This document shows, in pieces, positions 22,804 to 55,606 of a stretch of 64,000 nucleotides of DNA. Numbering within the stretch: the stretch's first letter is position 1; every line of letters starts with the position of its first letter. Made by a program: the position numbers and the translations under genes. The stretch is from a virus (lineage: Duplodnaviria > Heunggongvirae > Uroviricota > Caudoviricetes). Below the pieces are notes generated by a model, which did no database searches, was not told the DNA's origin, and saw nothing but the letters and a program-made list of their open reading frames with translations. The stretch lies in the IMG/VR virus record IMGVR_UViG_3300021976_000008, positions 25,164-89,163 of that record. One strand, 5' to 3'.

Positions 22804-22900
22804 CCCCATCGCCCGCCTGGTGGCCGATGGGCGGCGCCTCAGCGCCGCCTGGGGACAAGCCCTACTCGAACCCAACTCACGCAACGAGGGCGCAACCTAA

Positions 22901-23212
22901 GTGGTGAAACGAGTCCACGATCTACATGCGCTCCTGGCGCTCAGTCGCCCCGGCGAACTCATACTCGACACCGATTCCATCGTCGGCCAGCACCGACGAC
23001 TCGACGTCGTAGACGAGCCCGTCGAAGGCATCCCTGCTGTCAGGAGCGTTGACGGCATGGCCATGCCGCTGATGCGCTGCCACATCGACGGCGAAGGCAG
23101 CGGCCTCGAAGACCTCATGCGCCTAGGACAACTAGTCGCCACGCAGCAACAGGTGCGGCTAGAGCTAGTCCGGTTCACCTTTCGCCACCACATCCAATGG
23201 ATCGAGCCATGA
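22901..23212 (+). CDS. hypothetical protein (103 aa)
   Basis: GTG start; ATGA coupling to next gene. Confidence 0.4.
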   Translation: MVKRVHDLHALLALSRPGELILDTDSIVGQHRRLDVVDEPVEGIPAVRSVDGMAMPLMRCHIDGEGSGLEDLMRLGQLVATQQQVRLELVRFTFRHHIQWIEP

Positions 23213-23601
23213 GAACATTCCACAAGGACGGCACGTTGCCCGATGACGACGACGTGATCTTCGTGTTCGGCAGCAACATGGCCGGCTTCCACGGTGCTGG
23301 CGCCGCCAGGGTCGCAGCGCATCAGTTCGGGGCCGTGCATCGCATCGGTGTCGGGCGTCGGGGCTCGTCATATGCCATCCCGACCAAGGACTTCGAGATC
23401 CGCACGCTGCCTCTACCGATCATCAGGGTCTATGTAGACAGGTTCGTCGCCTACGCCAGTGAGAACTCGGATCTGACATTCTTCGTCACCTCGATCGGCT
23501 GCGGGCTGGCGGGCTACGAGCCTGCAGCGATCGCGCCGTTGTTCAAGGGTGCCCCAGAGACATGCAGCTTCCCCGACACCTGGGAGGAGCGTCTTGGCTA
23601 A
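23209..23601 (+). CDS. conserved phage protein with Rossmann-like motif VIFVFGSNMAGFHGAGAA
   Basis: Gly-rich loop GSN.AG.HG.GAA..A and SYAIPT resemble a widespread phage/bacterial small domain; family name not recalled with certainty. Confidence 0.45.
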   Translation: MRTFHKDGTLPDDDDVIFVFGSNMAGFHGAGAARVAAHQFGAVHRIGVGRRGSSYAIPTKDFEIRTLPLPIIRVYVDRFVAYASENSDLTFFVTSIGCGLAGYEPAAIAPLFKGAPETCSFPDTWEERLG

Positions 23602-23815
23602 CGCGATACATCCAGCCAGGATCGATCACGTTATATACGTCGCCTACGGTCTCGAAGAGTTCACCATCGTCGAGTTAGCTAATAAATCTGACGAACTGGT
23701 GACGGTCGTCAGGAAGTTAGTTGACAAGAAATTCGCTGCTGGCGAGTTGATTCGGATGAACAAAGGCAGCAGATACAACCCAAGTAAGTACAGGTGGGCT
23801 TCCGATGACAGGTGA
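23594..23815 (+). CDS. hypothetical protein (73 aa) in a low-GC patch
   Basis: TTG start 5 nt after GGGAGGAG RBS; local GC about 50%. Confidence 0.4.
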   Translation: MANAIHPARIDHVIYVAYGLEEFTIVELANKSDELVTVVRKLVDKKFAAGELIRMNKGSRYNPSKYRWASDDR

Positions 23816-23923
23816 CGACCAATTAGAGAGGAAGGCCGTAATGATCAAGGTTCTCGGAATAGCACTCTTCACCGGATGCGTTGCCGTCTGGCTCTACGCA
23901 CACCTGCGCGGGAGGAAGCAGTG

Positions 23924-24073
23924 ATGAACGAGGACAAGGCGACCGAGGACTTTGGGTTCCTAACCCGGATGTTCCAGGAAGTCGATCTTGCCCTGTACGA
24001 CGCGGAGCTGAAGGTGCAGGCGTTCAAGCGCGGTTCGAGACGGTGGCTCCCGGAACGTGGGGTGGCGTCATGA
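23924..24073 (+). CDS. hypothetical protein (49 aa)
   Basis: Short ORF with ATGA coupling to the next gene. Confidence 0.3.
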   Translation: MNEDKATEDFGFLTRMFQEVDLALYDAELKVQAFKRGSRRWLPERGVAS

Positions 24074-24324
24074 ACGGCTGGCTCCTTGCCATGGAGACGG
24101 AGTCGGCGAACGCGATCTTCTACATCTGCGTGGCAGCCGTTGCCGTCGTCTTCATCATCTGCGCAGCGTGGGTCTTGCGGGGCTGGGGTCCTCTGCAGGG
24201 GCCAGCGGTCAAGGTGAGTGATCCGCCCATGTGGTCAGAGACGACGGTTGAGTACGGGCCAGCAGCGGCATCGAGTGCTCCCGCTGCGGACAAGACCGAA
24301 GAGGCGACAGGAGAACAGCAGTGA
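24070..24324 (+). CDS. membrane protein (84 aa)
   Basis: TM helix AIFYICVAAVAVVFIICAAWVL. Confidence 0.45.
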   Translation: MNGWLLAMETESANAIFYICVAAVAVVFIICAAWVLRGWGPLQGPAVKVSDPPMWSETTVEYGPAAASSAPAADKTEEATGEQQ

Positions 24325-24809
24325 GATCCCCCACAGTCAACGGAGACCTCGATGGGGCCGCATTTGCCGTCCAGGTTGGAGCCCGACTCCGAGCCTTGCG
24401 TAAGGCCAGGATGTGGTCGCTTCAAGACGTCGTGAACCGGCAGGCCGGTTGGAGCGCCTCGGCGATAGGAGCCTGGGAGCGAGGCTCACGCGCCATCAGC
24501 GTGCCCCTCCTCTACGAGGTCGCTGCTTTCTACGGCGTCTCTGTCTCGCTTCTACTCGGCGGCGACCGTGAACTGAAGCCGAAGCCCAAGCAACGCCGGC
24601 TGGTCTTCGATCTCGAAGCCCTGCAAAGCACTCCCGACGCTGCCATGGTCGAGCGCTTCGTCCGGACGATCATCGTCGAGCGCGGCGACTACAACGGTCG
24701 GGTCCTGACGATCCGCGACGACGACATGAACGCGATCTGCACGCTGGTCGGCGTCGAGACCCACGCCGAGGCGATCGCTCAGCTCGACAACTGGGGCGTA
24801 CTCGCGTGA
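24321..24809 (+). CDS. helix-turn-helix (XRE-like) DNA-binding protein
   Basis: LRALRKARMWSLQDVVNRQAGWSASAIGAWERG HTH; GTGA coupling. Confidence 0.55.
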   Translation: MRSPTVNGDLDGAAFAVQVGARLRALRKARMWSLQDVVNRQAGWSASAIGAWERGSRAISVPLLYEVAAFYGVSVSLLLGGDRELKPKPKQRRLVFDLEALQSTPDAAMVERFVRTIIVERGDYNGRVLTIRDDDMNAICTLVGVETHAEAIAQLDNWGVLA

Positions 24810-24894
24810 GCCGAGCCGTCGCCTGGACCGTGGGCGTCTCCGGTCTCCTGGCCTTCTGGCTCTACGTCGTCATCGGCACCCAGAAGGGATGGCT

Positions 24895-25059
24895 GTGAAC
24901 CAGCGCAAGTGGGTGCTCCACCTCGATCTCACCCGGTTCGGCGATCAGGGCGACGAGATCCAACACGAGATCGAGCACCTGCTTCAGGGCCACGCCTACC
25001 TCGCTGATGTCGCTCCCCATGACATCCGCACGTGGAAAGAGGTCGAGGGGACTTGACGA
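24895..25059 (+). CDS. hypothetical protein (54 aa)
   Basis: Short ORF after a 30-aa membrane peptide ORF. Confidence 0.3.
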
Positions 25060-25248
25060 CCAGCGCCATCTGGCCCTAGCTTTACCCCTGTCGTCAGTAC
25101 GGCGGCAATCCATCATCAACACCAACTGAATGCCGATTCCGTAGAACACCCGCCCAGGCGGGTGTTCTACGTTTGTATCTCCGTGACTCGGAGAGCCCCG
25201 GGCGATCGTATGAACGCCAGCTCGGATGTCGTCCGGTAGACGCGGAAA

Positions 25249-25279
25249 GGCCCGGCCCTTTGGGGCCGGGCCTTTGTCG
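25249..25279. terminator. bidirectional rho-independent terminator GGCCCGGCCC-TTTG-GGGCCGGGCC with T-runs on both strands
   Basis: Perfect 10-bp stem plus flanking TTTG / TTTCC. Confidence 0.7.
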
Positions 25280-25285
25280 AGGAGA

Positions 25286-25888
25286 TCACTCCGGCGTCGG
25301 CGTCTCCGCCGGCTTGACCTGGTACAGATGCGGTGCCCGGCCGCGACCGGTGTAGTCGGGCGTCGGACCCAGCTTCTCGACCTGACCAGAGGCAACCAGC
25401 TCATCGAGGGCGCCGCGGACGGTGGCCTGGCTGCTGCCGATGGCCTCGATGACCTCGGCGAGCTGGAAGGGCTTCGTCAGGGTGAGCACGTGGGCCTTGA
25501 CCGCCTCGACCGGCACGGCCTTCGCCCGCAGACGAGCGGCACCGCCGAGCTTCGGACGAGAGACGGTGATGTCGAAGCCGGCGGCACGCAGCACCTCGGG
25601 CGGCACCTTCAGATCCGTGAACGCCTTCCACGGGACACCCGCCTCCTCACTCCATGCCTTCGCATGGGCGACGAACCCCTCACGCAGCGGTGCCTCGTCC
25701 ATGTTGGTGGCCGCGTCCAACGCAGCGAAGGCCTTCAGCTTGTCGATCGGGTCGATCGCCCCGGCGACATCCTTGGTCGCCTTCTCGACCTCGTCGGCGT
25801 CGATGAGCTGCCTCGGGTCGTCGAGATAGAGCATGTAGTTGCGGACGGCGTCCTCGGGCTTGGTCTTATCGGTGGTGGTCTTCGGCAT
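25286..25888 (-). CDS. winged-helix DNA-binding protein (200 aa), terminator-flanked stand-alone unit; candidate regulator
   Basis: C-terminal QATVRGALDELVASGQVEKL wHTH; hairpin terminators on both sides. Confidence 0.5.
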   Translation of the reverse strand: MPKTTTDKTKPEDAVRNYMLYLDDPRQLIDADEVEKATKDVAGAIDPIDKLKAFAALDAATNMDEAPLREGFVAHAKAWSEEAGVPWKAFTDLKVPPEVLRAAGFDITVSRPKLGGAARLRAKAVPVEAVKAHVLTLTKPFQLAEVIEAIGSSQATVRGALDELVASGQVEKLGPTPDYTGRGRAPHLYQVKPAETPTPE

Positions 25889-25969
25889 AGCCGGCACCCT
25901 AGCGCTTAGAGAGAAGGATGCGATGGATCATCACGAAACAGGCAAGAAAAATCCCCGTCGACGCGGAAA

Positions 25970-25993
25970 GGCCGGCTCTCATCGGAGCCGGCC
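25970..25993 (-). terminator. terminator hairpin GGCCGGCTC-loop-GAGCCGGCC followed by TTTCC on minus strand, downstream of integrase
   Basis: Stem-loop 40 bp after the integrase stop codon. Confidence 0.6.
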
Positions 25994-26033
25994 TGATCCT
26001 AAAGTCCTGGTAGATCGGCGCTTCTGCGATCTC

Positions 26034-27578
26034 CTAAGCCGCCGCTTCCCCGGTACCCGCTGGCGCATTGTCCATCGCGATGGGTGTAAGGCAGCGAGTC
26101 CCATCGCGCCCGGGGAGGTCTCGGGGGACGCTGGGGTCGTTGCGAGTCCAGATGCGGAACTCCCCGCCACGCTGGACGGCGATGACCTCGAAGGCATCGG
26201 CTAGGAACGCTCGCCTCTCTTCGATACCGAGCGTCTCCCAGATCTCGCTGAGGTTCACGGGCAGAGCAACGCCGAGCACGGCGTTGCGAGCTTCAGCGAC
26301 AGCCTCGCGAGCTTCCATTACCCGAGCCAGACGAGCCTGTTGCCCGTCCTCGACCCAGGACTTGCCCAGAACCCGCCCCATTTCGATCGTGCTGTCCGAG
26401 ACGAGGAACTCCCTCAGCTCTGCCTCTGCGGTCTCCTGCTCCAACAGCGCGGCTTCTAGGGCGTCTGTGGACACCTCGCCACGAGCGAAGCGATCGCAGC
26501 ACGGACCGAGGAACTTGGTCCTGAAGACCTCCTCGACCGCTGCCTCGATGACGTCAGCTCGGATACGGGCCGGCGCCGGGCACTTGCCGAACGTGTGGTT
26601 GCGGCGGCAGTCGTAGTAGCGGTAGTGGCCGTAGGCGTTCTTGGTGCCGACGCCGCGCATGGTGACACCGCAGCCGGTGCAGCGGATGATGCTGGTGAGC
26701 TTGTACGTGGCCTCGTCGTTCCGCAGGACGTTCCGGTTGTGAGCGTTGGCTCGCTGCCACAGATCGAGCGACACGATGCCCTTGTGGGCGTTGAGGTTCA
26801 CGAACTCACCCGAGGTGATCTCGCCGAGGTAGACGCGAGACTGGACGAGGCGGCGCACACTGTTGATCCCCCAGAGGCCGCCTTCTCTAGTCCGGATGCC
26901 CCCTTCGTTGAGCCAGTCGGCGATCTTGGCCCAGGCCATTGGCCCGGTAGTGCCGTCGGGTCGGGGAGCTTCGGCTCGCCGCTCGAACATGCCGACGACC
27001 CAGTCCTCCTCGTCGGGGACGGACACCAAGCGACGCGTTCCGATGAGCTTGCCGTTCGGACCGGGCACGCCGTCCTTGCGGTAGCCGTAGGGCTCGGCTG
27101 TGTGGACACCGTTGGCGACGCGGCGCCGGGTGACGTCCTCCCAGCCCTTGGTGACGGACTTGAGGTACCACTCAGCCATCCACAGCAGCACGGCCAGGAT
27201 CAACTGCGACAACTCGCTACCGTCGCCGTAGATGCCGTCCTTGACGGCGATGAACACCTTGCCGTTGTTCTCCAACTCGCGCACGGCCAGGAGACCACCG
27301 ATCATGTCGCGAGCGAGGCGATCGACCTTCATGACGATGATCCCGTCGGCCTCGTCAGCAAGAACCCCAGCGACGGCTTTCTGAAGCTCCTTGCGCTCGA
27401 CCGTCTTGCCCGAGACCGAGTCGGACTCATCGAACCAGTGCACGATGCGGTGGCCGTTGGCCTTGGCCCAGGCCTCGCAGGAATCGACCTGCTCGAAGGG
27501 CGAGTGGTACGAACCGTTGTCCGAATCCGAGCGGTTGTTGTCTCGGGAGACACGCTTGATGCCGAAGAGGTCAGCCAT
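26034..27578 (-). CDS. int: large serine recombinase (phage integrase, resolvase catalytic domain + recombinase domain + zinc ribbon/coiled coil)
   Basis: N-terminal resolvase motifs with catalytic Ser (VSRDNNRSDS...), RLARD, long C-terminal recombinase domain with Cys cluster CTGCGV..C. Confidence 0.9.
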   Translation of the reverse strand: MADLFGIKRVSRDNNRSDSDNGSYHSPFEQVDSCEAWAKANGHRIVHWFDESDSVSGKTVERKELQKAVAGVLADEADGIIVMKVDRLARDMIGGLLAVRELENNGKVFIAVKDGIYGDGSELSQLILAVLLWMAEWYLKSVTKGWEDVTRRRVANGVHTAEPYGYRKDGVPGPNGKLIGTRRLVSVPDEEDWVVGMFERRAEAPRPDGTTGPMAWAKIADWLNEGGIRTREGGLWGINSVRRLVQSRVYLGEITSGEFVNLNAHKGIVSLDLWQRANAHNRNVLRNDEATYKLTSIIRCTGCGVTMRGVGTKNAYGHYRYYDCRRNHTFGKCPAPARIRADVIEAAVEEVFRTKFLGPCCDRFARGEVSTDALEAALLEQETAEAELREFLVSDSTIEMGRVLGKSWVEDGQQARLARVMEAREAVAEARNAVLGVALPVNLSEIWETLGIEERRAFLADAFEVIAVQRGGEFRIWTRNDPSVPRDLPGRDGTRCLTPIAMDNAPAGTGEAAA

Positions 27579-27808
27579 CAGCGGACTTCCATGAACTCGG
27601 CAATGCCTTCGACCGCCTGGGACTTGGTCTTCCAGTAGTGCCCGCATTCGCATGACACCGAGGCGAACCCGCCAGCTTCAGCGAGGGCCTCGCCCATGAT
27701 CATCTCGCCGGTCTCCTCATCGATCGAGACGTCCTGCACGAGGACGCCTCGACGGATTACGCGGAAGGTGAGTGAGCCGCAGCTGGTCGGGCAGTAGAGA
27801 CGGCGCAT
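27578..27808 (-). CDS. zinc-ribbon protein (76 aa) translationally coupled to integrase
   Basis: CPTSC...CECGHYW; TGATG overlap with int start. Confidence 0.5.
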   Translation of the reverse strand: MRRLYCPTSCGSLTFRVIRRGVLVQDVSIDEETGEMIMGEALAEAGGFASVSCECGHYWKTKSQAVEGIAEFMEVR

Positions 27809-31394: not shown

Positions 31395-31595
31395 CTAGCA
31401 GGTTGGAGGATCGAACTGCCCAGAGGTGGCCTCGGCCAGGAACGCCTTCCACGCGGCGGTTGTGAAGTGGAGGACCAGGCCATCCGGTGCTGTCGAGCTG
31501 CGCACCATGACTCCTTCCGGAGTCACGCACACTTCGACACAGGCAGCATCTTCGCACGCGAAGCTTCGTTGCCAGAGCAGTGCCTTTTCCGTCAT
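31395..31595 (-). CDS. DUF397 domain protein (66 aa)
   Basis: WQRSFACEDAACVEVCV..VMVRSS..GLVLHFT..AWKAFL matches DUF397 pattern (WRKSSYS..CVEVA..VRDSK). Confidence 0.7.
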   Translation of the reverse strand: MTEKALLWQRSFACEDAACVEVCVTPEGVMVRSSTAPDGLVLHFTTAAWKAFLAEATSGQFDPPTC

Positions 31596-32692
31596 CGCTC
31601 GATCCCTGCCTTGACGTGCTCACCGTTCCCGTTCTTCTTCTCGAACACCTCTTCGTCCATCGCCGCGAAACCAGGTGCCGTGGGGACTTGACGATCATGG
31701 CGGCGACCACGTCGCCGGAGAACCTTCTTGCGAAGCACCTTCCCATGTCTGTCGTATAGTGCCGGGAAGTCCTCTGCCGCGTAGCCCGCGCCACGCCAAC
31801 TCAAAGCGCCGTTGATCTCATCACCCATCACCCACGCGTTCCATGCCTTGACCGTGACGGCAAGACGTGTAACTTGGCTCGGATTCTCACGGTCCGAATG
31901 CTTCCGCCCAGACCACCTGCGTAGCTGATATGTACCACTGCGCTCAGTTAGATCCACCCCCCGCATCAACTCATCATGGAACTTGTCCGAAAGCTCGGGC
32001 TCATAGCTGCTGATGACGTAGTGAAAGGCAGTGGTCACCGACTCGACGAAACCTAGTGCCTTCTCGCGACGAGCTAGAGCCCGAGCGAGTCGAAGCGATG
32101 CGTGGACCTCGTCATGGTTGCCCAGCCAACGAAGCACCTGATTCGCTGTTGGAGGCGTGTTCGACATCAGAGTGCCGAGGTCCCATCGAACGAGCAGTCG
32201 TGCAGCCGGCGCCAACTTGGCTGGTTGGGCGTATTTGTGCATCGCCAGGACATGCTGAAGGCTGCGCCTTCGACCGGTATCGATGGTGTCCCACGCGTCA
32301 GGCGAGGCGTGAGTGAGAACGATTGTGCGGAACGTCTCACTCTTCTCGATGCATGCTTCCAGACGTGTTTGCCCGTCCATCAACCGACCCCAGGGTGGGA
32401 AGCGTTCATCGTCACAGAAGGAGATCGTGCTCCCGTTGACGAACCACACCCCATCCGCCATGTCCTCGCCATAGCGATCGATGTGGCCGTCGCTCTTCGG
32501 ACGGTTGCGTTCGTTGCCAGCGAGCATCTGCTTGGCGATCTCGGGGGTGATCCACATGATCCGGACCTCTTCGGTCCAGACCTCTTCCTCCGACGGCGTC
32601 TTCTCGGATCTAACTGTCGAGGCCATCTGCACCACCTTGGGGTTCGAGGACTGTGTCGCCATCGTAGCAAAACTTGGTGGGCCGAGGGGCAT
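31592..32692 (-). CDS. ParB/Srx-fold protein (ParB-like nuclease domain; DGQTRLEA motif resembling DUF262 DGQQR)
   Basis: N-terminal domain with DGQTRLEA; start may be at a downstream Met (codon 11 or 23). Confidence 0.55.
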   Translation of the reverse strand: MPLGPPSFATMATQSSNPKVVQMASTVRSEKTPSEEEVWTEEVRIMWITPEIAKQMLAGNERNRPKSDGHIDRYGEDMADGVWFVNGSTISFCDDERFPPWGRLMDGQTRLEACIEKSETFRTIVLTHASPDAWDTIDTGRRRSLQHVLAMHKYAQPAKLAPAARLLVRWDLGTLMSNTPPTANQVLRWLGNHDEVHASLRLARALARREKALGFVESVTTAFHYVISSYEPELSDKFHDELMRGVDLTERSGTYQLRRWSGRKHSDRENPSQVTRLAVTVKAWNAWVMGDEINGALSWRGAGYAAEDFPALYDRHGKVLRKKVLRRRGRRHDRQVPTAPGFAAMDEEVFEKKNGNGEHVKAGIER

Positions 32693-32721
32693 ACCCTTGC
32701 CCCCCGGCCCGGGGAAGTGTT

Positions 32722-32795
32722 TAGCGATGACGGGACTTGAACCCGCGACATCACGCGCCAGAGGCGTGCGCTCATACCAACTGAGCTACATCACA
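32722..32795 (-). tRNA. tRNA with anticodon CUG (Gln) on minus strand
   Basis: Hand-folded cloverleaf: D-arm GCTC/GAGC, anticodon stem CACGC/GCGTG loop CTCTGGC, T-arm GCGGG-TTCAAGT-CCCGT, 7-bp acceptor with one T-T mismatch at 1:72; no CCA encoded. Confidence 0.65.
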
Positions 32796-33020: not shown

Positions 33021-33758
33021 CTATGGGGCGAGAAGATACTCGAACACAGGGCTGCCGACCTTGAGGTCGGTGACCGGGGTCCGGTTGGCTTCCTCTCGCG
33101 CGAACGTGACGGCGTCGATGAGAACGTCGATGCGATCGAGCAACTGCTGCCGCCGAGAACCGTCGATGGCGCCGGAGAGCTTGGTCACCGTCCAGGTCCC
33201 TTCCGGCTCGCTGACCGTGTAGACGTGGACTTTCTCAGGATGCTCCTTCGTCGCCGGGGAGATGCGGTGGTTCTTGAACACCTCGTGAGTCTTCTGCCGC
33301 TCTTCGGGTTCCGATCGGGAGACACCGGTCGTTTCATCGGTGTTCCAGATCTCAGCCGGGTCGAGGATTGGGAGGTGAACCAGGAAACCGCGCAACTCGA
33401 TGAGCTGCTTCTCGAACCACACCAGGTACGAAGCAGGGACATCCGCGAGCAGCACGTCCCCCTCGACCACGATGTTCGCCTTGGCCTCGGTGTTCGTCCT
33501 GTCGCGACTGGCCGTGATGTCCCACCAGCGACCGAGATCGGCGGCGAGGCGATCGGTGATGCCCTTCACCGTGAGCTGCACTTGGGTCGACTCCTGCGGG
33601 TACCCCTGCTCGCCGTCCACCTTGGGCGCGTACTTCCGAGCTAGCCCATTCAGTGGACCGCTCTTGTTGATGTCATCCGTCGCCTGAGCCCGAGTGCTTT
33701 CGGCCTTCGCTCGGGCTCGCCCCTCGACCCCGAGGAGCTGGTTAAGTAGTGTCGGCAT
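33021..33758 (-). CDS. hypothetical protein (245 aa)
   Basis: Long protein-like ORF; no recognisable motif. Confidence 0.5.
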   Translation of the reverse strand: MPTLLNQLLGVEGRARAKAESTRAQATDDINKSGPLNGLARKYAPKVDGEQGYPQESTQVQLTVKGITDRLAADLGRWWDITASRDRTNTEAKANIVVEGDVLLADVPASYLVWFEKQLIELRGFLVHLPILDPAEIWNTDETTGVSRSEPEERQKTHEVFKNHRISPATKEHPEKVHVYTVSEPEGTWTVTKLSGAIDGSRRQQLLDRIDVLIDAVTFAREEANRTPVTDLKVGSPVFEYLLAP

Positions 33759-37009: not shown

Positions 37010-37475
37010 CGGGTCGTGACCTCCCGTTAGGTCCGACTCGCCCCGGGCGCTGTGCGATCGGCGCCTGGGGCACTATGCAACTTTGCAGGGTCGAGCGTAC
37101 CGCTTGTTACGTCATCAAGCAACAGCTTCCTTGGACGCGAGACAGCCCGCCGCGGGGACGAGGCGGGCTGTCTCTGGGGGAGTGGTTATGGCCGGAAGGC
37201 AAACCCCCGGTGTCCTGCCGGAGTGTCGCGCCCCGCCACCGCCCCAACCCCAACCGGGCCTCGACAGTAGCCAGGTTGTTGCCGTGATGGTCTATCACGG
37301 CGTCGGATGGGGATCAAGGGGCTGTGGCGAGGAGACCGCAGCGCCTCCCCGCCACAAACCCCAACGGCGAGCACGGGGGCTGGCGGTAACTCCCGTCGCT
37401 CACGCGTCACCCATGCTAACGCTCTGACCGCTCCTCGTCCAACGGCTTGATACGTCATCACACGCCGAGTGAGAC

Positions 37476-37490
37476 CGTGATACGGTATCG
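37476..37490. promoter_or_regulatory. palindromic operator-like site GTGATAC-G-GTATCGA immediately upstream of 37496 gene
   Basis: Member of a recurring GTGATAC-N-GTATCAC family (also 21986-22000, 39701-39715). Confidence 0.4.
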
Positions 37491-37495
37491 AGCCG

Positions 37496-37780
37496 ATGAC
37501 CAGCAAGGCGACGTCCATGCTCCGGGCTCTCACCCCGCCAGCAGCAGCCGGCGATGATGTCGCTCTCAAGCTGAGGGACCGCATGTCGATGGCCCTCGAC
37601 GCCGGGATGGACCCCGACGAGGTGGCCGACGCCGTCCTCGACCAGCTCTTCCATCATCTCGACCACAGCGACTGCGAGTACCACCGCACCGCTCTGCTCA
37701 TGTGGAAGGGGCTCGTGAACTGGGGCATCACCGACGCGTACCTGTACATCAACGATCCAACGAACCATGGGAACACGTAG
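37496..37780 (+). CDS. hypothetical protein (94 aa)
   Basis: ATG 5 nt after an operator-like site. Confidence 0.45.
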   Translation: MTSKATSMLRALTPPAAAGDDVALKLRDRMSMALDAGMDPDEVADAVLDQLFHHLDHSDCEYHRTALLMWKGLVNWGITDAYLYINDPTNHGNT

Positions 37781-37813: not shown

Positions 37814-38536
37814 ATGCTGATCGTGGCCGGCGTGATCCTCGCGATCGCGTTGGCAGCCGGGTCACTGGTCGTATCGACGCGCACTCGGCGCTCACAGCAG
37901 GATCTTCAGAGTCGGGTCATGGAGGCCCTTGATGTGCTCGACGCCGAGACCGCTGCGGCCACCGATGCCAAGCGCATCATCAGCGAGGCCCGAGGCGGGA
38001 AGCTGGTGTCGGTTCCAGCGGCGGCATGGCTGGCCAAGAAAGCCGGAGAGAACAAGCGGACCACCGGGGTGTTGCTCGCCCTGGCGATCATGGCGTCGAC
38101 CGGAGTCGGAGTCGTGGCCCATCGGGACCCGAAGCCAGAGCCAACAAGGCAAGAACCCACCGTTGGCCTGACGACCGCTATTCCATCGACTTCGACCACG
38201 ACCGTGCCGTCGAGCACGACGAGCCCCAGCCAGCCGGCGCCGTCGCTTCCCGCTGGCGAGACGACCACGACCACCACGGCATCCACGTCGACGTCACCTC
38301 CGCCTGCGACGACAGCGCCCCTATCCGACGAGCTGCTGGTCCTCGCCAGCCTGCAACTCGGCAACGAGTTGCAGGCGAGTGTCCTGGGGCAGGACATCGT
38401 GCTCCATGATCTGACGGACGTCCTGGCGGGTCAGATCGGGGACGACTTGGCGGGCGCTAAAGAGCTGCTTGACGTGGTCGAGCGCTGCCTCACCGGAGAC
38501 GTACCCAGCCCGACAGAGGACTGCCCCCCGCTGTAG
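37814..38536 (+). CDS. membrane protein with S/T/P-rich linker (240 aa); 3' end overlaps the convergent HTH gene
   Basis: N-terminal TM MLIVAGVILAIALAAG and a second TM; Thr/Ser/Pro tract. Confidence 0.4.
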   Translation: MLIVAGVILAIALAAGSLVVSTRTRRSQQDLQSRVMEALDVLDAETAAATDAKRIISEARGGKLVSVPAAAWLAKKAGENKRTTGVLLALAIMASTGVGVVAHRDPKPEPTRQEPTVGLTTAIPSTSTTTVPSSTTSPSQPAPSLPAGETTTTTTASTSTSPPPATTAPLSDELLVLASLQLGNELQASVLGQDIVLHDLTDVLAGQIGDDLAGAKELLDVVERCLTGDVPSPTEDCPPL

Positions 38537-38716
38537 ACCGCAGCAGTCCTCGATCTGGATGATCTTGCGCAGATCGGGCTCGAAGCGACCCAGCGCCCAA
38601 TCCGACACGGCGCTCTGTTGCACACCAAGCGCTGTAGCCACGTCACGCTGCCGGAGACCGGCACTCGTGTACGCCCAGCGGATGGCTTCGCCCAGCGGTG
38701 ACCTCACGCCTGACAT
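38321..38716 (-). CDS. XRE-family HTH regulator (131 aa as ORF; functional protein may be shorter)
   Basis: LRQRDVATALGVQQSAVSDWALGR HTH; divergent from the 38866 gene. Confidence 0.5.
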   Translation of the reverse strand: MSGVRSPLGEAIRWAYTSAGLRQRDVATALGVQQSAVSDWALGRFEPDLRKIIQIEDCCGLQRGAVLCRAGYVSGEAALDHVKQLFSARQVVPDLTRQDVRQIMEHDVLPQDTRLQLVAELQAGEDQQLVG

Positions 38717-38865
38717 CGTAACGTAACAGTGCAGCCCTTACAACCAGAGCCCCCTTAGCGGGCCTGAGCAGGGAAAACGCCTGCTGCCCATAGGTGCTTG
38801 ACTGTTATGACCGCCACTGCCAAACTGAGCCGCTTATTGACGCCTCTTGGAACCGAGGAAAGCTA

Positions 38866-39162
38866 ATGGCGATCACGGACAGTGCTGTGCGTGACGACCC
38901 GGCGGAAGATGCGGCCGTTCGCATTGCACTGCTGGAAGCCGCTGTCGAGCGCTTGCGTTCGGAGATCGAAGCGTACCGGCGGGCCTTCGAGATCATCAGG
39001 GTGGCTGGCAAGATCATCGCCATGGGAGTGAGCCCCCTGTGCGAGCAAGGCGGCCCCCCGTCCGGATCATCCAGGGGAAAGGATGAGAAACCCCTGAACA
39101 TCGCAGACGAGGGACCGCTTGGTCAGCCCCTGTGGTATCCCGTCTCATCCACCGGGGGCTGA
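38866..39162 (+). CDS. coiled-coil protein (98 aa)
   Basis: GAGGAAAGCTA RBS region then ATG. Confidence 0.45.
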   Translation: MAITDSAVRDDPAEDAAVRIALLEAAVERLRSEIEAYRRAFEIIRVAGKIIAMGVSPLCEQGGPPSGSSRGKDEKPLNIADEGPLGQPLWYPVSSTGG

Positions 39163-39172
39163 GACCTAAACC

Positions 39173-39556
39173 CTATCCGGTCCACTCCTTGACGACAAAC
39201 GCCCGGTAGAGTTCGCGGAAGGCGCCCTTCTGAGCGAGGTTCAACTCGCGCCGGGACATGACGAACGTCTCGAAGTCCGTGTCATCCTCGACGGCGTGTA
39301 GCCGCTTGAAGATGGCCCCTCTCGGCAGCTCGAAGACATCTTCGAGCGCCATGACGTTGTGGATGTGCAGGCCCCCGAAGTGACGGCCGCCGTTCTCCCA
39401 CGTAGAGACGCCCGACTGGCGCATCCCGAGCCTCTCGGCGAGCTGCGCCGCGGTCCAGTCGCGACGCTCGCGCTCCGCCTTGATGAGCGCGCCCAACGCC
39501 GCGGAAAGCTCCAAGGCGTGAGCCTCACGCCGTGCCGCCACGTCTTCACCAGGCAT
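39173..39556 (-). CDS. XRE-family HTH protein with C-terminal domain; candidate immunity repressor (cI-like)
   Basis: WTAAQLAERLGMRQSGVSTWENG HTH; divergent from a promoter/operator region. Confidence 0.5.
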   Translation of the reverse strand: MPGEDVAARREAHALELSAALGALIKAERERRDWTAAQLAERLGMRQSGVSTWENGGRHFGGLHIHNVMALEDVFELPRGAIFKRLHAVEDDTDFETFVMSRRELNLAQKGAFRELYRAFVVKEWTG

Positions 39557-39681
39557 TTTTAGCCCCACTCCTCTTATCTGCATATCGAGGGTCCACAGTA
39601 CGTTATCGCACCGCGACTTGCAACGAGTCCTATGTCACGAATCCTACCCGTGGTAGGGGTCGCGGACTGTGGTCGAGTTGT

Positions 39682-39715
39682 TTGACCAGCCAAAAGGGGC
39701 GTGGTACGGTATCAC
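39682..39715 (+). promoter_or_regulatory. promoter TTGACC-17-TACGGT overlapped by palindromic operator GTGGTAC-G-GTATCAC
   Basis: Hexamers and spacing read from sequence; intergenic between the divergent HTH gene and rightward early genes. Confidence 0.4.
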
Positions 39716-39944
39716 ATCACACAGCACGGATGGTGGATGGAAGGAGGTCAGAGGTGCCGTCTGTTCGTCGCCGACCCCGTGGTTCCGGGGGAGTTACCAG
39801 CGCGTCACTACTCGCCCAGTGTAGGCGATGCGGCGCCACGAGCACAGCTCGCCTGACCCGTCGAGGAGCGACGGTCTACCTTCCCATCGAGAAGGGCCGC
39901 CACGCCGGCTGCGGTGGCTGGTTCCGCCTGTTCAGGAACGTCCC

Positions 39945-40403
39945 GTGAGCGGCGGCAAGGAACCGTTCACCGGAGCGGAGCTGCGCAGGTTCTTCGAGAG
40001 ACGCTACTCGGCGAAGAGCTTACGGCAGACCGGCTCTCACCTCTCGATGGAGTTGCCCGACGGCCGCGTGCTGCGCTGCACGGACGACAAGGGCACCGTG
40101 ACCAAGGTGTTGATGCAGTGGAACGCCAAGGTGCTCGGCGTCAGCTATGCGGAGCTACGGGCTCAGCTCGCTCCGATCCAGAACAAGAACAAGCCCCGCT
40201 TCAGACCTCGTACGCATCCTCCCGCTCGACCGGTGTCGAGGAAGGATGCGCTGTCATGCCTCGATGAGCTGATCGGCGACGCGAGGCAGATCAAGCACCA
40301 GATCTGCAATGGCGACCGGGACCCGTCTGTCTACCGCCGCATCCACGATGCAGCTCGCTCAGCGCGTGGATCACTGCGCCAACACAACCGGGTGAAGAGA
40401 TGA
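39945..40403 (+). CDS. HicA/YcfA-like domain protein (possible mRNA-interferase-type toxin fold), 152 aa
   Basis: TGSHLSMELPDGRVLRCTDDKGTVTKVL resembles the HicA GSH...P.G...TV motif; GTG start. Confidence 0.35.
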   Translation: MSGGKEPFTGAELRRFFERRYSAKSLRQTGSHLSMELPDGRVLRCTDDKGTVTKVLMQWNAKVLGVSYAELRAQLAPIQNKNKPRFRPRTHPPARPVSRKDALSCLDELIGDARQIKHQICNGDRDPSVYRRIHDAARSARGSLRQHNRVKR

Positions 40404-41154: not shown

Positions 41155-42546
41155 GTGATGGACGGCTCTCCTTCTACACCTACCCCGGCGGGGCCTGAGC
41201 TTCGCGGTATACGTCAAGCTGAAGAAGATCTAGACAGACTGCGTCGATGGCCACCGGACTCCCTGGTCTTCTCGCCAGACGGAGAGCCATGGTGTCGCTT
41301 CATCGTCGGTACGACAGAGTGCGTCTATCAGGACGCCTGTCTCAATCCCCGTCACAACATCCCGAGCTGTAAGCGCTGTGGTTGGCAGTGGGATGGCTTT
41401 GGCGACCCTCCGCGGGCCTGTCAGAGGTGTAAGTGCTCGAAGTGTGGCTGGCAATATCCAGGCACCAAGGAACTGCCAGATCCATGCAGTGTCTGCAAGG
41501 CGAATCTCTATCTCGAACCCGCCGACCCGAAGGACCCATGGAACGTGGACGTACGAATCAAGCACGATCACTGGGGACGCTACGTTCTCCCCCATCCGAT
41601 CACCGGCAAGGAGACCCACTTCACTCGGGTCACTACGGCGGCAGGTGCTCTTGAAGACACGTACGGGCTCATGGACTGGAAGGCCCGCATGGTCGCCTTC
41701 GGCATGGGTCAACGTGCAGACCTCGTCACCCTTGCTGCATCGGCGAACGGCTCGGATGACAAGGACGTCCTGAACCAGGTAGTCAAGCAAGCGGAGCAAG
41801 CAGCCGCTGTTGACAAGAAGGCAAACATCGGTACGGCACTGCATGCGATGACCCAGCGGATTGACTTGGGCGAGGCCGTGAAGATTCCGCCTGACCATCG
41901 CGACAGGATCATCCGCTACAAGACCGCCGTCGCTCAGCACCGACTGGACTTCATCCCCATCTTCATCGAAGCAGTCGTGTGCGTTCCTGATCTCGGGCTC
42001 TGCGGCACCATGGACCGTGGGGCCATCTGGCCCCACGCTTCCCTACCAGTGATCTATGACCTGAAGACTGGCTCTCTCGACTACATCAAGGTCAAGACAG
42101 CGCAGCAGTTGGCGGCCTACGCCAATGCGACACATCGGTGGGATGGCTCTCGCTGGCACGAGATGCCGCCGTTCAACAAAGAGATGGCTCTCGTCATGCA
42201 CCTGCCAGCCGAGGGCGATGACGAGCCCAAGCTCTACCGAGTGAACATCAGAGAAGGCTGGCGGCTACTAAACCAGGCGATCGACGTGCGCAGCCTGCGC
42301 TCAGGACGGGGCAAGCACCTCTTCACCGAGATCACCGCTGACGCCATTCCGACGCCTTCCGCCAATCGCGAGGAAGAGCTGCGGGAGCGCATCACGAAGA
42401 TCGTGGCGGTCGCTGCGGCGAAGCAGGCGCTGCTCGGCATGTGGCCTCAATCCATGCCCACGCTGTCCGAGGGGGGCCTGAGCGATACCCAGCTCGATCT
42501 CATCGAGGGATGGTGCGGTGAGGTCGAGAGGGAGCACGGGCTATGA
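41155..42546 (+). CDS. PD-(D/E)XK nuclease (Cas4/RecB-like exonuclease) with N-terminal multi-CxxC zinc-finger region
   Basis: CVPDLGLCGTMDRG...VIYDLKTGS matches the D..(D/E)xK core; N-terminal CKRCGW..CQRCKC..CGW..CSVC. Confidence 0.6.
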   Translation: MMDGSPSTPTPAGPELRGIRQAEEDLDRLRRWPPDSLVFSPDGEPWCRFIVGTTECVYQDACLNPRHNIPSCKRCGWQWDGFGDPPRACQRCKCSKCGWQYPGTKELPDPCSVCKANLYLEPADPKDPWNVDVRIKHDHWGRYVLPHPITGKETHFTRVTTAAGALEDTYGLMDWKARMVAFGMGQRADLVTLAASANGSDDKDVLNQVVKQAEQAAAVDKKANIGTALHAMTQRIDLGEAVKIPPDHRDRIIRYKTAVAQHRLDFIPIFIEAVVCVPDLGLCGTMDRGAIWPHASLPVIYDLKTGSLDYIKVKTAQQLAAYANATHRWDGSRWHEMPPFNKEMALVMHLPAEGDDEPKLYRVNIREGWRLLNQAIDVRSLRSGRGKHLFTEITADAIPTPSANREEELRERITKIVAVAAAKQALLGMWPQSMPTLSEGGLSDTQLDLIEGWCGEVEREHGL

Positions 42547-53569: not shown

Positions 53570-53919
53570 TGGCGCGACCCAAGTCCATTGATGTCCGTCG
53601 ACTAGCGGTCGAGCTGCACCAGAAGCGTGGCCATCCTGCTGAGTACGACGGTCCATGTTGGGGTCCGACGCCGGCTGATTTTGCTGAGGCTCGACGGCAC
53701 GTGGAGGAAGACCCCCAAGCCACCTCCGAGGTCCCCTCGAAGGGCCATACGGGTTCGCCACATGAACCCCTATGGGGGGTCGCTGGGATCTCGGGATTTC
53801 GTGGGGCCGGATTTGAAAAGACCGTATGGGGGGTCGGCTACGCCCCAGGAAAGGGTATGGGGGTGTTTTCAAATTCTCGGATTTCTCTGGGACGGATTTC
53901 GGATTTGTCATGCACATAG
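53569..53919 (+). CDS. hypothetical protein; the 3' half runs through a DNA repeat region so the true stop is uncertain
   Basis: N-terminal 60 aa protein-like; C-terminal part encoded by TATGGGGGGTCG / GGATTTC repeats. Confidence 0.3.
   Translation: MARPKSIDVRRLAVELHQKRGHPAEYDGPCWGPTPADFAEARRHVEEDPQATSEVPSKGHTGSPHEPLWGVAGISGFRGAGFEKTVWGVGYAPGKGMGVFSNSRISLGRISDLSCT
53750..53910. repeat. short direct repeats (TATGGGGGGTCG x2-3, GGATTTC x4) upstream of the SLOG gene
   Basis: cccctatggggggtcgctgggatctcgggatttcgtggggccggatttgaaaagaccgtatggggggtcgg... Confidence 0.5.
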
Positions 53920-54278
53920 TGACGACCGGACCGCGCGACTGTCGCAACAGCGAGGTGATTCGGTTGCTAATGGTCCACCTGCGCGAGGCGATCGGGCCTG
54001 ACCTCCTAGTCATCCAGGGTGGGGCTCGTGGCTCTGATCGACACGTCAAGGAGGCATGTAGAGCCCTTGGCGTGGTATGTGAGACGGAGTGGGCCAACTG
54101 GACTGGCCCCTGCGATATCGAGGGAGGCTGGTGCCGCCCCTTCCATCGACGCCGGCGCGCTGATGGCACCGAATACTGCCCTGCAGCTGGCCCCCGACGC
54201 AACGCCATGATGCTCTACAAGTGGGAGCCGGCGCTTGTCATCGCCCTCTATCGGAGACCAGGGGCACCAAGGACATGA
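53910..54278 (+). CDS. DUF2493/YspA-type SLOG domain protein
   Basis: IVTTGPRDC...LLVIQGGARGSDRHVKEACRALG pattern typical of DprA/LOG-like SLOG proteins common in actinophages. Confidence 0.55.
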   Translation: MHIVTTGPRDCRNSEVIRLLMVHLREAIGPDLLVIQGGARGSDRHVKEACRALGVVCETEWANWTGPCDIEGGWCRPFHRRRRADGTEYCPAAGPRRNAMMLYKWEPALVIALYRRPGAPRT

Positions 54279-54388
54279 TCGAGCGAGCAGAGAGGGCCGG
54301 TTGTATGTACGTCGAGGTCGACGTGCGCTTCGGGCTGGGCAGGGCCGTCGCTGCTGTCGAGTCGAAGCTTGCCGAGCTGGCCGCTTGA
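54275..54388 (+). CDS. hypothetical peptide (37 aa)
   Basis: ATGA-coupled short ORF. Confidence 0.25.
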   Translation: MIERAERAGCMYVEVDVRFGLGRAVAAVESKLAELAA

Positions 54389-54409
54389 ACTTTGCCTAGC
54401 CTCTCTCCC

Positions 54410-54520
54410 CTAGGTATTTTTTTTTTCTATTATGTATTATATATATATATATATATAAAGTAGGGACGATATCGGCCCTATATCGGCCTCGATCCTCGGT
54501 TTTTTTTTTCGGGGTACAGG
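54410..54520. repeat. AT-rich tract: T10, (AT)9 microsatellite, ATATCGGCC direct repeat, T10
   Basis: ttttttttttctattatgtattatatatatatatatataaagtagggacgatatcggccctatatcggcc...tttttttttt. Confidence 0.8.
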
Positions 54521-54527
54521 TGTTCGT

Positions 54528-54640
54528 ACGAACAGACGTTGGGGGTACGGGCGTTCGCCCCGAACAGGTGCGCGGGGAACGGGCGTTCGCAGGCGAACAC
54601 GTGCGCGCACGTACAGACGTTCGTACCGATCGGCCGATAG
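54528..54640. repeat. cluster of four palindromes with GTTCG...CGAAC arms (GTTCGTACGAAC, GTTCGCCCCGAAC, GTTCGCAGGCGAAC, GTTCGTACCGATCGG)
   Basis: Read directly from sequence. Confidence 0.7.
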
Positions 54641-54799
54641 CGCTCTAGGCGCGCACTCCGCCGCTCTACGTGGGAGACCCGGAAATCGGCGCCGATAGAT
54701 GCCCTGGTCAAGGCTCTTGACAAGTCGCGATTCGTCCCAGATCTCCCGCGAGGGTCGCCCATGGGTGCTAGGTGCTGCCAGCACTTCAAATGGAGTAGG

Positions 54800-54860
54800 C
54801 GACCCTCTAGACCCCAATGGGAGCACGTCAGTCGGTAGACCCCAATGGGTGGACTAGACC
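54800..54860. repeat. direct repeat TAGACCCCAATGGG x2 plus CTAGACC motifs
   Basis: ctctagaccccaatgggagcacgtcagtcggtagaccccaatgggtggactagacc. Confidence 0.6.
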
Positions 54861-55396
54861 GGGGAGACTGTAACGGGATCGCAACACGTTCTAGACCTCC
54901 GGCACTAGAGCAGGGACTACGCTGGGGGTTGATCCCAGGAGAGACCGAGCACCCCGCGAGGGACGGTCCCCAGCTAGAGCACCTAGCGAGCGATAGGGCA
55001 GGGATTCACCCCTAGGGGATGCGCTCCGATCTCGGGAGCGTCCCCCTATCTCTTGGTGGGTGACGGCCAGTGCCAGGCCAGGGATATATGGCAGGCCAGA
55101 CTTAGCCACCGTTGACGGTTCGGCAGTCGTTCCGCGTGAGGGAAGCAATCCGCGGCAGTAGACGACACTTGACCTAGGGGTGAAGGGTCTCCGTAGCGCA
55201 CGGGGGTTTACGGCTCAGCTATCGGGCTAGTTCCCCGGTAGCGAGCTAGTGGACACTGCCTAGGCCTTCCCGGTCTGCCGCTAGTAGCTATACGGACCGC
55301 GCTAGCGAGACCTCGGAGACCTAATGGTCTCTAACGTTGCTCGCTTTAACGACTCGACATCGTCGCGGTTCACTGACCTAGAAGAGGGATGAGGCT

Positions 55397-55606
55397 ATGC
55401 CTAGCAACGAAATCGTTACTGAGGATGGTGTCACGGTTCACAAGGGTGACCGCGTGTTCAACTACTACGATCGCGTCTACTGCGTGATCACGGAAGATCC
55501 CGACTCTCAGGGATGGTTCAACACAACCGAGGACGATGGCAGGCGGACGCCACTGAACGGGGCTCGTATCTGTTCCGTTGCTTTCGCAGAAAGGAAGGGT
55601 TGGTAA
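55397..55606 (+). CDS. hypothetical protein (69 aa), first gene of the compositionally distinct right-hand segment
   Basis: GAGGGATGAGG RBS; lower-GC codon usage. Confidence 0.5.
   Translation: MPSNEIVTEDGVTVHKGDRVFNYYDRVYCVITEDPDSQGWFNTTEDDGRRTPLNGARICSVAFAERKGW

Follow-up and report, generated by a model that had tools for sequence, protein, structure and literature searches.

A candidate CI-like lysis-lysogeny switch with palindromic, promoter-overlapping operators in a metagenomic phage

The repressor sites of the Streptomyces phage phiC31 are conserved inverted repeats in intergenic regions. In mycobacteriophage L5, the sites known as stoperators are asymmetric, about 13 bp long, bound by a monomer and present in 18-30 copies, and they block elongation; phiC31 belongs to the same many-site class (18-30 sites) (PMC4557955). 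The switch of the Cluster G mycobacteriophage BPs was likewise studied experimentally, covering O_R, O_Rep and the other promoters that carry operators (PMC4557955).

Here we describe a region from a circular metagenomic phage genome of ~89 kb, within a stretch of 64,000 nucleotides that we call the window. The window encodes a serine integrase (26034-27653; phrog_95, 3e-73), and the integrase together with divergent early genes provides a temperate context. On balance, the DNA probably represents the lysis-lysogeny switch region of a temperate actinobacterial phage.

Palindromic sites and the promoters that carry them

A preliminary description of this DNA had placed 15-bp palindromes of the form GTGATAC-N-GTATCAC at 21986, 37476 and 39701 and partial sites at 18472-18478 and 37451-37463, all in intergenic gaps. 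These sites are present, with two of them shifted slightly (37476-37490 to 37477-37491 and 37451-37463 to 37447-37461):

21986-22000, + strand: operator GTGATGCGGTATCAC, 1 mismatch to the ideal palindrome
37447-37461, + strand: operator O_A2, TTGATACGTCATCAC, 3 mismatches
37477-37491, + strand: operator O_A1, GTGATACGGTATCGA, 2 mismatches
39701-39715, + strand: operator O_R, GTGGTACGGTATCAC, 1 mismatch
18472-18478, + strand: half-site GTGATAC

The motif search proposed in that description returned three copies with up to two mismatches (0.10 expected) and six with up to three mismatches (1.57 expected), and none of 100 shuffles reached either count. All four strong copies (21986, 37447, 37477 and 39701) are intergenic, as had been claimed, and intergenic DNA makes up 10.5% of the annotated part (p ~1e-4 for this placement, based on rough gene calls). 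The spacing TGA-N7-TCA occurs in every copy and the position counts of the motif are symmetric, with a total information content of 19.5 bits in the position weight matrix (PWM); no copy in the window is a perfect palindrome. The weaker sites at 18488, 37104, 37284 and O_rep of the window each score within the chance range of the PWM when taken alone. Another 18 kb of this genome, beyond the window, contained no further copies with up to three mismatches. With 82 kb of the ~89-kb genome scanned, the family is thus small: about 4-7 sites, of which four are strong and roughly three weak, all of them at or beside promoter-like elements. This census rules out a large stoperator-like family. The earlier comparison with stoperators was not borne out: the sites are 15 bp long and symmetric (perfectly so in the related locus L001), few in number, and located on or just after promoter -10 elements, indicating classical operators rather than sites of the L5 type.

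O_R lies in the intergenic region between a leftward gene for a helix-turn-helix protein, which we call HTH1, and a rightward early operon:

39173-39583, - strand: HTH1, XRE/Cro-CI-type helix-turn-helix protein and candidate immunity repressor (Pfam, PHROG and predicted fold)
39595-39623, - strand: P_rep, own promoter of HTH1, -35 TTGCAA at 39618-39623, 17-nt spacer, -10 TACTGT at 39595-39600
39595-39609: weak operator O_rep, ACAGTACGTTATCGC on the + strand, overlapping the P_rep -10 and spacer
39682-39715, + strand: P_R, early rightward promoter, -35 TTGACC at 39682-39687, 17 nt, -10 TACGGT at 39705-39710
39754-39948, + strand: first gene of the P_R operon, small protein of 64 aa with CxxC...HxGC
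41155-42546: Cas4-like exonuclease of the early operon (phrog_466)

The promoter TTGACC-17-TACGGT was found as previously described, with the palindrome over its -10; O_R covers the TGn-extended -10 of P_R. The same overlap occurs at O_A1 (TACGGT at 37481-37486), in agreement with the claim that two palindromes lie over -10 hexamers. In actinobacteria, the -10 element follows the rule TAnnnT with a TGn extension. Our promoter calls were based on this rule and on conservation; a generic sigma-70 scan detected no promoter at the switch region because TACGGT agrees with TATAAT at only three of six positions. The first gene of the P_R operon has a ribosome binding site (GAAGGAGGT at 39740-39748) and is followed by 39945-40403 and then by the early operon facing HTH1, in which Band_7 and Prim-Pol genes lie farther downstream of the Cas4-like exonuclease. 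Since 39754-39948 and 39945-40403 are missing from the relatives L001 and L022, these two genes are not core to the switch; related DNA was found behind P_R in L023, L024 and L030.

Further members of the family are associated with other promoters:

21971-21979, + strand: extended -10 TGCTACCGT, followed after 6 nt by operator 21986-22000
18454-18502, + strand: promoter TTGACG-16-TACCAT with TGA extension, the extension region being half-site 18472-18478
37284-37298, + strand: possible auxiliary site GTGATGGTCTATCAC (GTGA-N7-TCAC) in a 485-bp divergent intergenic region
37104-37118: second degenerate copy TTGTTACGTCATCAA in the same 485-bp region

The tandem operators O_A2 and O_A1 (37447-37491, + strand) precede gene 37496-37780, the ATG of which starts 5 nt downstream of O_A1, and O_A1 includes the extended -10 TGATACGGT. 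Operator 21986-22000 covers the point where transcription is predicted to begin and precedes the operon 22024-25056, one gene of which encodes a BldD-like protein; a hairpin at 21902-21927 terminates the unit upstream of promoter 21971. Promoter 18454-18502, upstream of genes 18564-21940, has the same geometry as 21971-22000, with a variant palindrome (GTGACGGCGAGTCAC) at 18488-18502, 6 nt past the -10. By position and geometry only, given its chance-range PWM score, this site may be counted as a weaker family member. The two degenerate copies at 37284-37298 and 37104-37118 are tentative members, and the former is not conserved in L001.

HTH1 and its conservation with the operator

HTH1 comprises 127 aa when started at ATG 39556 or 136 aa from the in-frame ATG 39583, which is conserved in all six HTH1 loci compared below. 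The preliminary annotation of 39173-39556 as a leftward XRE-HTH gene is upheld by Pfam scores above cutoff for both HTH_31 (38.7 bits, cutoff 27) and HTH_3 (35.6 bits, cutoff 23), and HTH1 also matches repressor/regulator families in PHROG. An AlphaFold model (pLDDT 75) predicts an XRE fold with a helical C-terminal extension; the best Foldseek matches were C.BclI, P22 c2, ClgR and Stl, and the last 50 residues, modelled as helical, match no known fold. No Peptidase_S24 domain was detected in Pfam or NCBIfam, so HTH1 differs from SOS-cleavable repressors of the lambda CI type, which have a LexA-like autoprotease, and induction probably does not proceed through RecA-stimulated self-cleavage. 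HipB-type antitoxins were the best matches in PDB and NCBIfam, but all scores were far below the cutoffs; no toxin gene follows this monocistronic gene, and we rejected this assignment. Searches of a sequenced-phage collection retrieved only unrelated Vibrio phage HTH domains, and a metagenome scan yielded only HTH-domain look-alikes.

Searching ~5.8 billion proteins and IMG/VR identified only five HTH1 relatives, giving six loci with the window (L001, L022, L023, L024 and L030 being the others), in which HTH1 is 50-100% identical. In 6/6 HTH1-encoding loci, the promoter TTGACC-17-TAC(G/A)(G/T)T is present with the palindrome over its -10, and a weaker second copy lies over the HTH1 promoter in all six as well. 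The copies of O_R read:

Window: GTGGTACGGTATCAC
L001: GTGATACGGTATCAC, a perfect palindrome
L022: GTGATACATTATCAC
L023: GTGATACGTTATCAA
L024: ATGATACGGTACCAC
L030: ATGATACGGTATCGC

Column identity was 0.91 in the block from the -35 to the operator and 0.81 in the P_rep block, compared with 0.65 in the spacer and 0.61 in the leader. O_rep and O_R of L030 have 16 identical bases in common. The copy before gene 37496 is kept wherever sequence exists, namely in L001, which retains both O_A2 and O_A1, and in the IMG/VR relative L030, where O_A1 is identical. The left half-site coincides with the extended -10 (TGnTACnnT), and part of the conservation is therefore promoter conservation. The right half ATCAC, where there is no known promoter element, is kept at unrelated sites too. 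The recognition helix of HTH1, GMRQS(G/T)(V/I/L)(S/A)T(W/Y)E, hardly changes among proteins that are 48-60% identical overall. The earlier proposal that the divergent XRE-HTH gene is the best candidate repressor gains from this, as the five independent related contigs keep the promoter-plus-palindrome opposite HTH1.

We moderately favour a reading in which HTH1 would act in the manner of CI, repressing a small regulon through dispersed operators that overlap promoters. From the sequence features described above we infer the identity of the binder (HTH1), its dimeric state on the DNA and the repressive direction of regulation: an HTH1 dimer would bind the 15-bp palindrome and, as one half of it is the extended -10, would occlude RNA polymerase. 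Predicted targets are P_R (39701-39715) and the promoter of gene 37496 with its two sites, further the promoter at 21971-22000 and, more weakly, that at 18454-18502, where the palindrome would lie over the transcription start. The degenerate copy at 39595-39609 over P_rep may mediate negative autoregulation. Predicted transcription starts lie at about 39717, 37493, 21986, 18488 and 39588(-). The arrangement is that of an immunity switch: an integrase-bearing temperate phage in which HTH1 diverges from an early promoter, with a repeated operator over the lytic promoter that is conserved together with HTH1 in 6/6 loci.

Outside these loci, relatives were scarce. Megablast and blastn searches with 8 kb against sequenced phages gave no relative and no DNA match, protein matches of the exonuclease in sequenced phages were all below 60% identity (26-37% for those listed), and IMG/VR protein-pattern scans with HTH1, the exonuclease and gene 37496 gave no close match. 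Scans of genome collections revealed no prophage copy that would assign a host directly; the sole match was a chance promoter in a Ruminiclostridium MAG. The host is probably an uncultured member of the Acidimicrobiia.

Other candidate binders of the palindrome

The preliminary description had named three other candidates for the repressor. One of them (25286-25888, here 25286-25897) was dismissed, as it has no match to a recognised DNA-binding family or structure; its C-terminal part shows just a stretch that looks winged-helix-like, and the motif is absent from its vicinity. The remaining two merit closer consideration; the first stays a rival, whereas the second is disfavoured:

38321-38716, - strand: HTH2, second XRE HTH protein (Pfam HTH_3, 32.7 bits)
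24321-24809, + strand: BldD-like regulator with XRE HTH and BldD C-terminal domain, in the operon downstream of operator 21986

That the palindromes are operators of HTH2, acting alone or as a Cro-like competitor of HTH1, appears unlikely to us. HTH2 is a genuine leftward XRE HTH protein of the same region, it is kept in L001, L022, L023 and L030, and its start codon carries a partial site (CTGATACGGCATCAT with 3 mismatches in L001; TGTTACGTT at 38720-38728 in the window). However, its recognition helix varies at four positions among the relatives (QQSAVSDW, TQGLVSAW, HQTAVSDW and HQTMVSQW) while the operator is unchanged, and HTH2 is not adjacent to P_R: it is divergent from its own partner gene 38866-39162(+), with the promoter TTGACT (38798-38803), 17 nt, CAAACT (38821-38826), and has a conserved promoter of its own that lacks the full palindrome. 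Every contig of sufficient length encodes HTH2 together with HTH1, and consequently co-occurrence cannot separate the two as binders. Covariation between repressor and operator was also sought in the six relatives, where the operator barely varies; it is too constant to pin down the binder in this way. The shared sequence could instead be a mere promoter signature of the phage, TGnTACnnT, with an incidental dyad and no repressor. GTGATACGGT includes TGn plus TAnnnT, five of the eight matches to TGNTACNNT in the window lie in intergenic gaps with a sixth being O_R on the reverse strand, and half-sites without a second half occur at 18472 and at the leftward promoters, P_rep and that of HTH2. 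We regard this explanation as quite improbable, because TGNTACNNT is not enriched overall (8 found, 10.4 expected), the right arm ATCAC is kept in 6/6 orthologous O_R copies and at non-orthologous sites, the palindrome is kept at 21986 (TGCGGT) and 37447 (TACGTC) where no TAnnnT is present, and at 21986 and 18488 it follows a separate -10.

The BldD-like protein has a Pfam BldD-like_C score of 60.6 bits (cutoff 27), and both BldD domains match solved structures (2ewt and 4oaz). In BldD, RXD-X8-RXXD is the c-di-GMP-binding signature (PMC4151990), which the phage protein keeps as RGD-YNGRVLTI-RDDD. It scores 121 bits against the NCBIfam BldD equivalog, under the cutoff of 250, and judged by these matches it is a BldD family member but not an equivalog. 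As a dimeric-type XRE regulator with RGD-X8-RDDD, whose own operon carries operator 21986 in a manner that would fit autoregulation, it might bind the palindromes, possibly in a c-di-GMP-dependent way, and the GTGA...TCAC at the ends of the motif is reminiscent of BldD half-sites. BldD boxes, however, canonically read TNAC-N5-GTNA (PMC4151990), so that GTGA-N7-TCAC presents the half-sites in the opposite order, and TCAC-N5-GTGA was not enriched (1 found, 1.3 expected). The helix of host BldD-like proteins, WSASAIGA[Y/W]ERG, is nearly the same as that of the phage (WSASAIGAWERG), yet the regions upstream of these host genes lack the motif; L030 has the operators, but family-specific peptide patterns found no BldD-like gene anywhere in IMG/VR; and 15 kb separate the phage gene from the switch. 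On box order, enrichment, host loci and L030 we rejected BldD-like binding as the main reading, consider it very improbable, and view the gene as a candidate regulon member rather than the likely binder. The contig encoding L032, another short BldD-like protein, turned out to be unrelated (72% GC) and lacks the motif. We give equally little credence to a c-di-GMP-gated switch, in which the BldD-like protein would bind the palindromes or compete with HTH1 at high c-di-GMP; if true, the level of c-di-GMP in the host would feed into the choice between lysis and lysogeny or into developmental reprogramming of the host. Least probable of all is recognition by a host regulator of the CRP/FNR or another type. 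CRP and FNR boxes read TGTGA-N6-TCACA and TTGAT-N4-ATCAA, with a core of TGA-N6-TCA, and the half-sites TGA/TCA and TTGAT/ATCAC resemble them; but TGA-N7-TCA is one base longer than this core, the motif travels with phage HTH1 in six contigs, and no copies occurred in the seven host-type chromosomal loci examined.

Comparison with described switches

With HTH1 as the favoured repressor, the closest parallel is BPs gp33, a small HTH repressor divergent from the early lytic P_R (PMC4557955). BPs has a palindromic operator over the core elements of P_R, a weaker second operator at the repressor's own promoter and further copies at other promoters, amounting to five loci in BPs and about four promoters here. 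In BPs, however, immunity depends on integration: attP lies within the repressor gene, which has a tyrosine integrase as its neighbour, whereas the phage described here has a serine integrase 11.5 kb away. Furthermore, the 12-bp palindrome of BPs is the half-site of a tetramer, in contrast to the odd 15-bp palindrome with 7-bp arms found here, and neither the BPs repressor nor other actinophage repressors were among the HTH1 matches in the sequenced-phage collection. As in this phage, the repressor sites of actinophage L5 (the gp71 stoperators) are not confined to the main operator. The repressor gene c of phiC31 produces three isoforms and lies downstream of the structural genes in rightward orientation, compared with one small HTH protein, about 4-7 sites and a divergent, CI-like layout here.

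Divergent repressor and lytic promoters, operators over the -10 and the autoregulation proposed here are also reminiscent of lambda CI, whose GMGQSGV resembles GMRQSGV of HTH1 (25% identity over 57 aa, pairwise E 4e-5), although lambda CI was not among the significant PDB sequence matches of HTH1. The half-site TATCAC is presumably shared with the lambda operators, which we take as a lead only; the hexamers are oriented the opposite way relative to the dyad. Lambda has three O_R sites and an S24 autoprotease, in contrast to the single site here and the absence of such a domain from HTH1.

For this lineage, the analysis provides a testable regulatory map consisting of a repressor, two divergent promoters and a four-promoter regulon. 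An operator half-site that is the phage's own extended -10 would illustrate a repressor competing directly with the sigma factor, and actinobacterial genetics could gain an orthogonal component in the HTH1-operator pair. Less ordinary is what this phage carries as cargo, a BldD homologue whose c-di-GMP signature is intact and which might hijack the developmental control of the host. The phage lineage itself is without a cultured or sequenced relative; the kind of system is already known, being a conventional CI-like switch that leaves the general understanding unchanged.

Operator family and its conservation

The preliminary description had proposed a candidate immunity switch with a palindromic operator family. 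A motif search with GTGATAC-N-GTATCAC showed that this family is real and enriched in the window, with three copies at up to two mismatches (0.10 expected) and six at up to three (1.57 expected), none of them a perfect palindrome. The copies described earlier are present, although two of the intervals need small shifts. Scored with a weight matrix derived from the sites of the window and of a related phage contig (L001), the top sites at 21986, 39701, 37477 and 37447 reached 21–24 bits, compared to an average null maximum of 12.6. All four are intergenic, as are the three matches to GTGA-N7-TCAC in the window; intergenic DNA accounts for 10.5% of the annotated part. A further 18 kb of this genome, from beyond the window, contained no operator with up to three mismatches, and the family is small.

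The main new result is the comparative evidence across related loci. HTH1, the XRE-HTH candidate repressor encoded at 39173-39556/39583(-), is rare: 5.8 billion proteins yielded, besides the window protein, only four relatives with 50–60% identity, and a DNA-pattern scan added one more locus on an IMG/VR contig of 83 kb (L030). All six loci are syntenic and have the same early rightward promoter, P_R, with the palindrome in place, which in L001 is perfect. In a six-way alignment of the region between HTH1 and P_R, column identity was 0.91 for the block from the -35 to the operator and 0.81 for an island over the repressor's own promoter (P_rep), versus 0.65 for the DNA between the islands and 0.61 for the leader.

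Promoters and operators of the proposed switch
39682-39687 and 39705-39710, rightward: P_R, TTGACC, 17 nt, TACGGT (coordinates checked)
P_rep island, minus strand: TTGCAA-17-TACTGT, overlapped by a degenerate operator copy
39595-39609: this degenerate operator (O_rep), ACAGTACGTTATCGC in the window
21971-22000 and 18473-18502: promoters of a second geometry, extended -10 TGCTACCGT or TGATACCAT
6179-6193, 7869-7883 and 10545-10559 (reverse-complement coordinates of L030): three operator copies within 20 kb of the 83-kb relative

The O_rep copy of L030 has 16 consecutive bases in common with the P_R operator of the same phage. All six loci keep an in-frame ATG (at 39583 in the window) that lies 11 nt past the P_rep -10; HTH1 is therefore probably a protein of 136 aa, translated from a near-leaderless transcript. 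Both tandem sites ahead of gene 37496 are kept in L001, and L030 has the proximal one without a single base change. The half-sites of L030 show CGATAC more frequently, and in its repressor helix RQSTLATYE takes the place of RQSGVSTWE, a hint of co-variation that is too thin to use.

Promoter architecture and the predicted binder

The palindrome at P_R covers roughly -17 to -2 and provides the TGn extension. At gene 37496, TGATACGGT lies within the palindrome and the ATG 5 nt beyond it; this ATG is kept in L001, unlike the downstream ATG that the database gene caller chose, and the mRNA therefore has little or no leader. In the second geometry, the extended -10 is followed after exactly 6 nt by GTGA-N7-TCAC over the predicted start. 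Neither P_R nor the other operator-bearing promoters were detected by a generic sigma-70 scan, because actinobacterial -10 elements follow the TAnnnT rule. An inverted repeat, TGGTC-N9-GACCA (39670-39688), overlaps the P_R -35; it is perfect in four of the six relatives, its flanking GTGGYC is kept in all six, and it could be the site of a second regulator or an upstream promoter element.

Part of the conservation is explained if the shared sequence is only a promoter signature, since the left half-site GTGATAC doubles as the extended -10 of the phage (TGnTAC..T), and the leftward promoters (P_rep and that of HTH2, a second XRE HTH protein) as well as 18472 have only this half. A promoter signature leaves the dyad unexplained, however: the right arm ATCAC, downstream of the -10, persists at orthologous and non-orthologous sites alike, and 21986 and 37447 retain the palindrome even though that position has no TAnnnT hexamer. 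Full palindromes would label the promoters that are to be silent in the lysogen, while half-sites would merely be promoters, a pattern that fits a simple lysogen shut-off design.

With the evidence weighed across three XRE-type candidates, we predict with moderate confidence from sequence that the operators are bound by HTH1. Its gene is adjacent and divergent to P_R, and its recognition helix has remained nearly constant (GMRQS-G/T-V/I/L-S/A-T-W/Y-E), although elsewhere in the protein identity has fallen to 48–60%. HTH2 (38321-38716(-)) is likewise a conserved candidate, but four positions of its helix vary, and it is paired divergently with gene 38866-39162, where a separate conserved promoter lacks a full palindrome. 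The BldD-like product of 24321-24809(+) is disfavoured: the BldD box, TNAC-N5-GTNA (PMC4151990), has the opposite half-site order and is not enriched here; BldD-like proteins of hosts have nearly the same recognition helix, yet no such motif lies upstream of their genes. Moreover, the gene is 15 kb away from the switch, and a pattern scan of IMG/VR found no BldD-like gene, though the IMG/VR relative has the operators. No S24 protease domain was found in HTH1, so that induction is unlikely to proceed by RecA self-cleavage and may need an antirepressor.

Genome, host and neighbouring elements

The window is identical to part of metagenome contig k141_1022293 (ENA ERZ27267804; 89,276 bp), both ends of which overlap by the assembler's 141-mer, and the genome is therefore a circular or terminally redundant molecule of ~89.1 kb. 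Besides tail and lysis genes, it contains a serine integrase, a leftward block of 12 kb and, from 37496 on, rightward early genes for a Cas4-like exonuclease (phrog_466, 2e-64), a Band_7 protein and a Prim-Pol, a gene content that identifies it as a temperate phage. No nucleotide match was found among 50,697 sequenced phages at blastn sensitivity; the protein matches listed were to Streptomyces, Mycobacterium and Gordonia phages, with 26–37% identity.

Further features
26034-27653(-): large serine integrase (phrog_95, 3e-73)
25138-25175: strong intrinsic terminator, ends the rightward BldD operon
32722-32795: tRNA-Gln(CTG), within 31395-32795(-)
33021-33758: DUF7873 protein
37128-37176: strong hairpin, 13-bp stem, GAGACAGCCCGCC...GGCGGGCTGTCTC, in a 485-bp divergent intergenic region

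The most unusual item is the phage-borne BldD homologue in an operator-headed operon. It is full-length, with XRE HTH and BldD C-terminal domain and an intact c-di-GMP signature (RGD-X8-RDDD), and neither the 50,697 sequenced phages nor an IMG/VR pattern scan yielded a homologue that has the C-terminal domain. Its closest relatives (55–60%) are BldD-like genes on the chromosomes of Acidimicrobiales and Microthrixaceae MAGs, where the FKBP-bldD-aspartate kinase context is conserved. Together with the G+C content (62%) and an XRE/DUF397 gene pair, these relatives point to an actinobacterial host, probably within Acidimicrobiia. The tRNA adjoins a 366-aa protein (phrog_5931) and a DUF397 protein, an arrangement typical of actinomycete XRE/DUF397 modules. 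Two copies of a 41-nt terminator-like repeat (within 25138-25275 and 25954-25994) flank gene 25286-25897(-), whose product has a C-terminal winged-helix-like stretch and gave no family or structure match.

Gene orientation alternates unusually at 38321-39173. The 3' end of 37814-38536(+) shares 216 bp with HTH2, and 38866-39162(+) converges on the HTH1 3' end across a gap of only 10 nt that lacks a clear terminator; transcription running on from TTGACT-17-CAAACT (38798-38826) could hamper expression of the repressor. Just past the initial codons of the P_R operon, the window carries an insert of ~650 bp (~39775-40400) compared to the relatives L001 and L022, with related DNA at this place in L023, L024 and L030. 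It codes for a CxxC...HxGC protein of 64 aa and for one of 152 aa that carries the conserved motif RQTGSHxSMExPDGRVLRC; neither gave a family match. The hairpin, kept in L001, may be a terminator or structured RNA; near it, GCTTG-N9-CAAGC (37102-37122) is a conserved palindrome that shares bases with a degenerate operator-like sequence. A (TA)10 run (54438-54457) lies within ~2 kb of low coding density (53570-55500), which may be an origin or regulatory region.

Relation to known switches

The analogy to L5-type stoperators fails, as the window sites differ in symmetry, copy number and location. CRP/FNR boxes have the form TGA-N6-TCA, in contrast to TGA-N7-TCA here. Lambda is the general archetype, and the HTH1 helix GMRQSGV resembles GMGQSGV of lambda CI; the half-site contains TATCAC as in the lambda operator, with the hexamer in reversed orientation relative to the dyad, a mere curiosity. 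The immunity switch as the main interpretation of the preliminary description holds, and phylogenetic footprinting in six uncultured phages lends it further weight. The switch belongs to an already known kind of system and is of modest general interest; the closest functional analogue is mycobacteriophage BPs, in which gp33 occupies a palindromic site at P_R as well as a weaker O_Rep and operators of three other promoters (PMC4557955).
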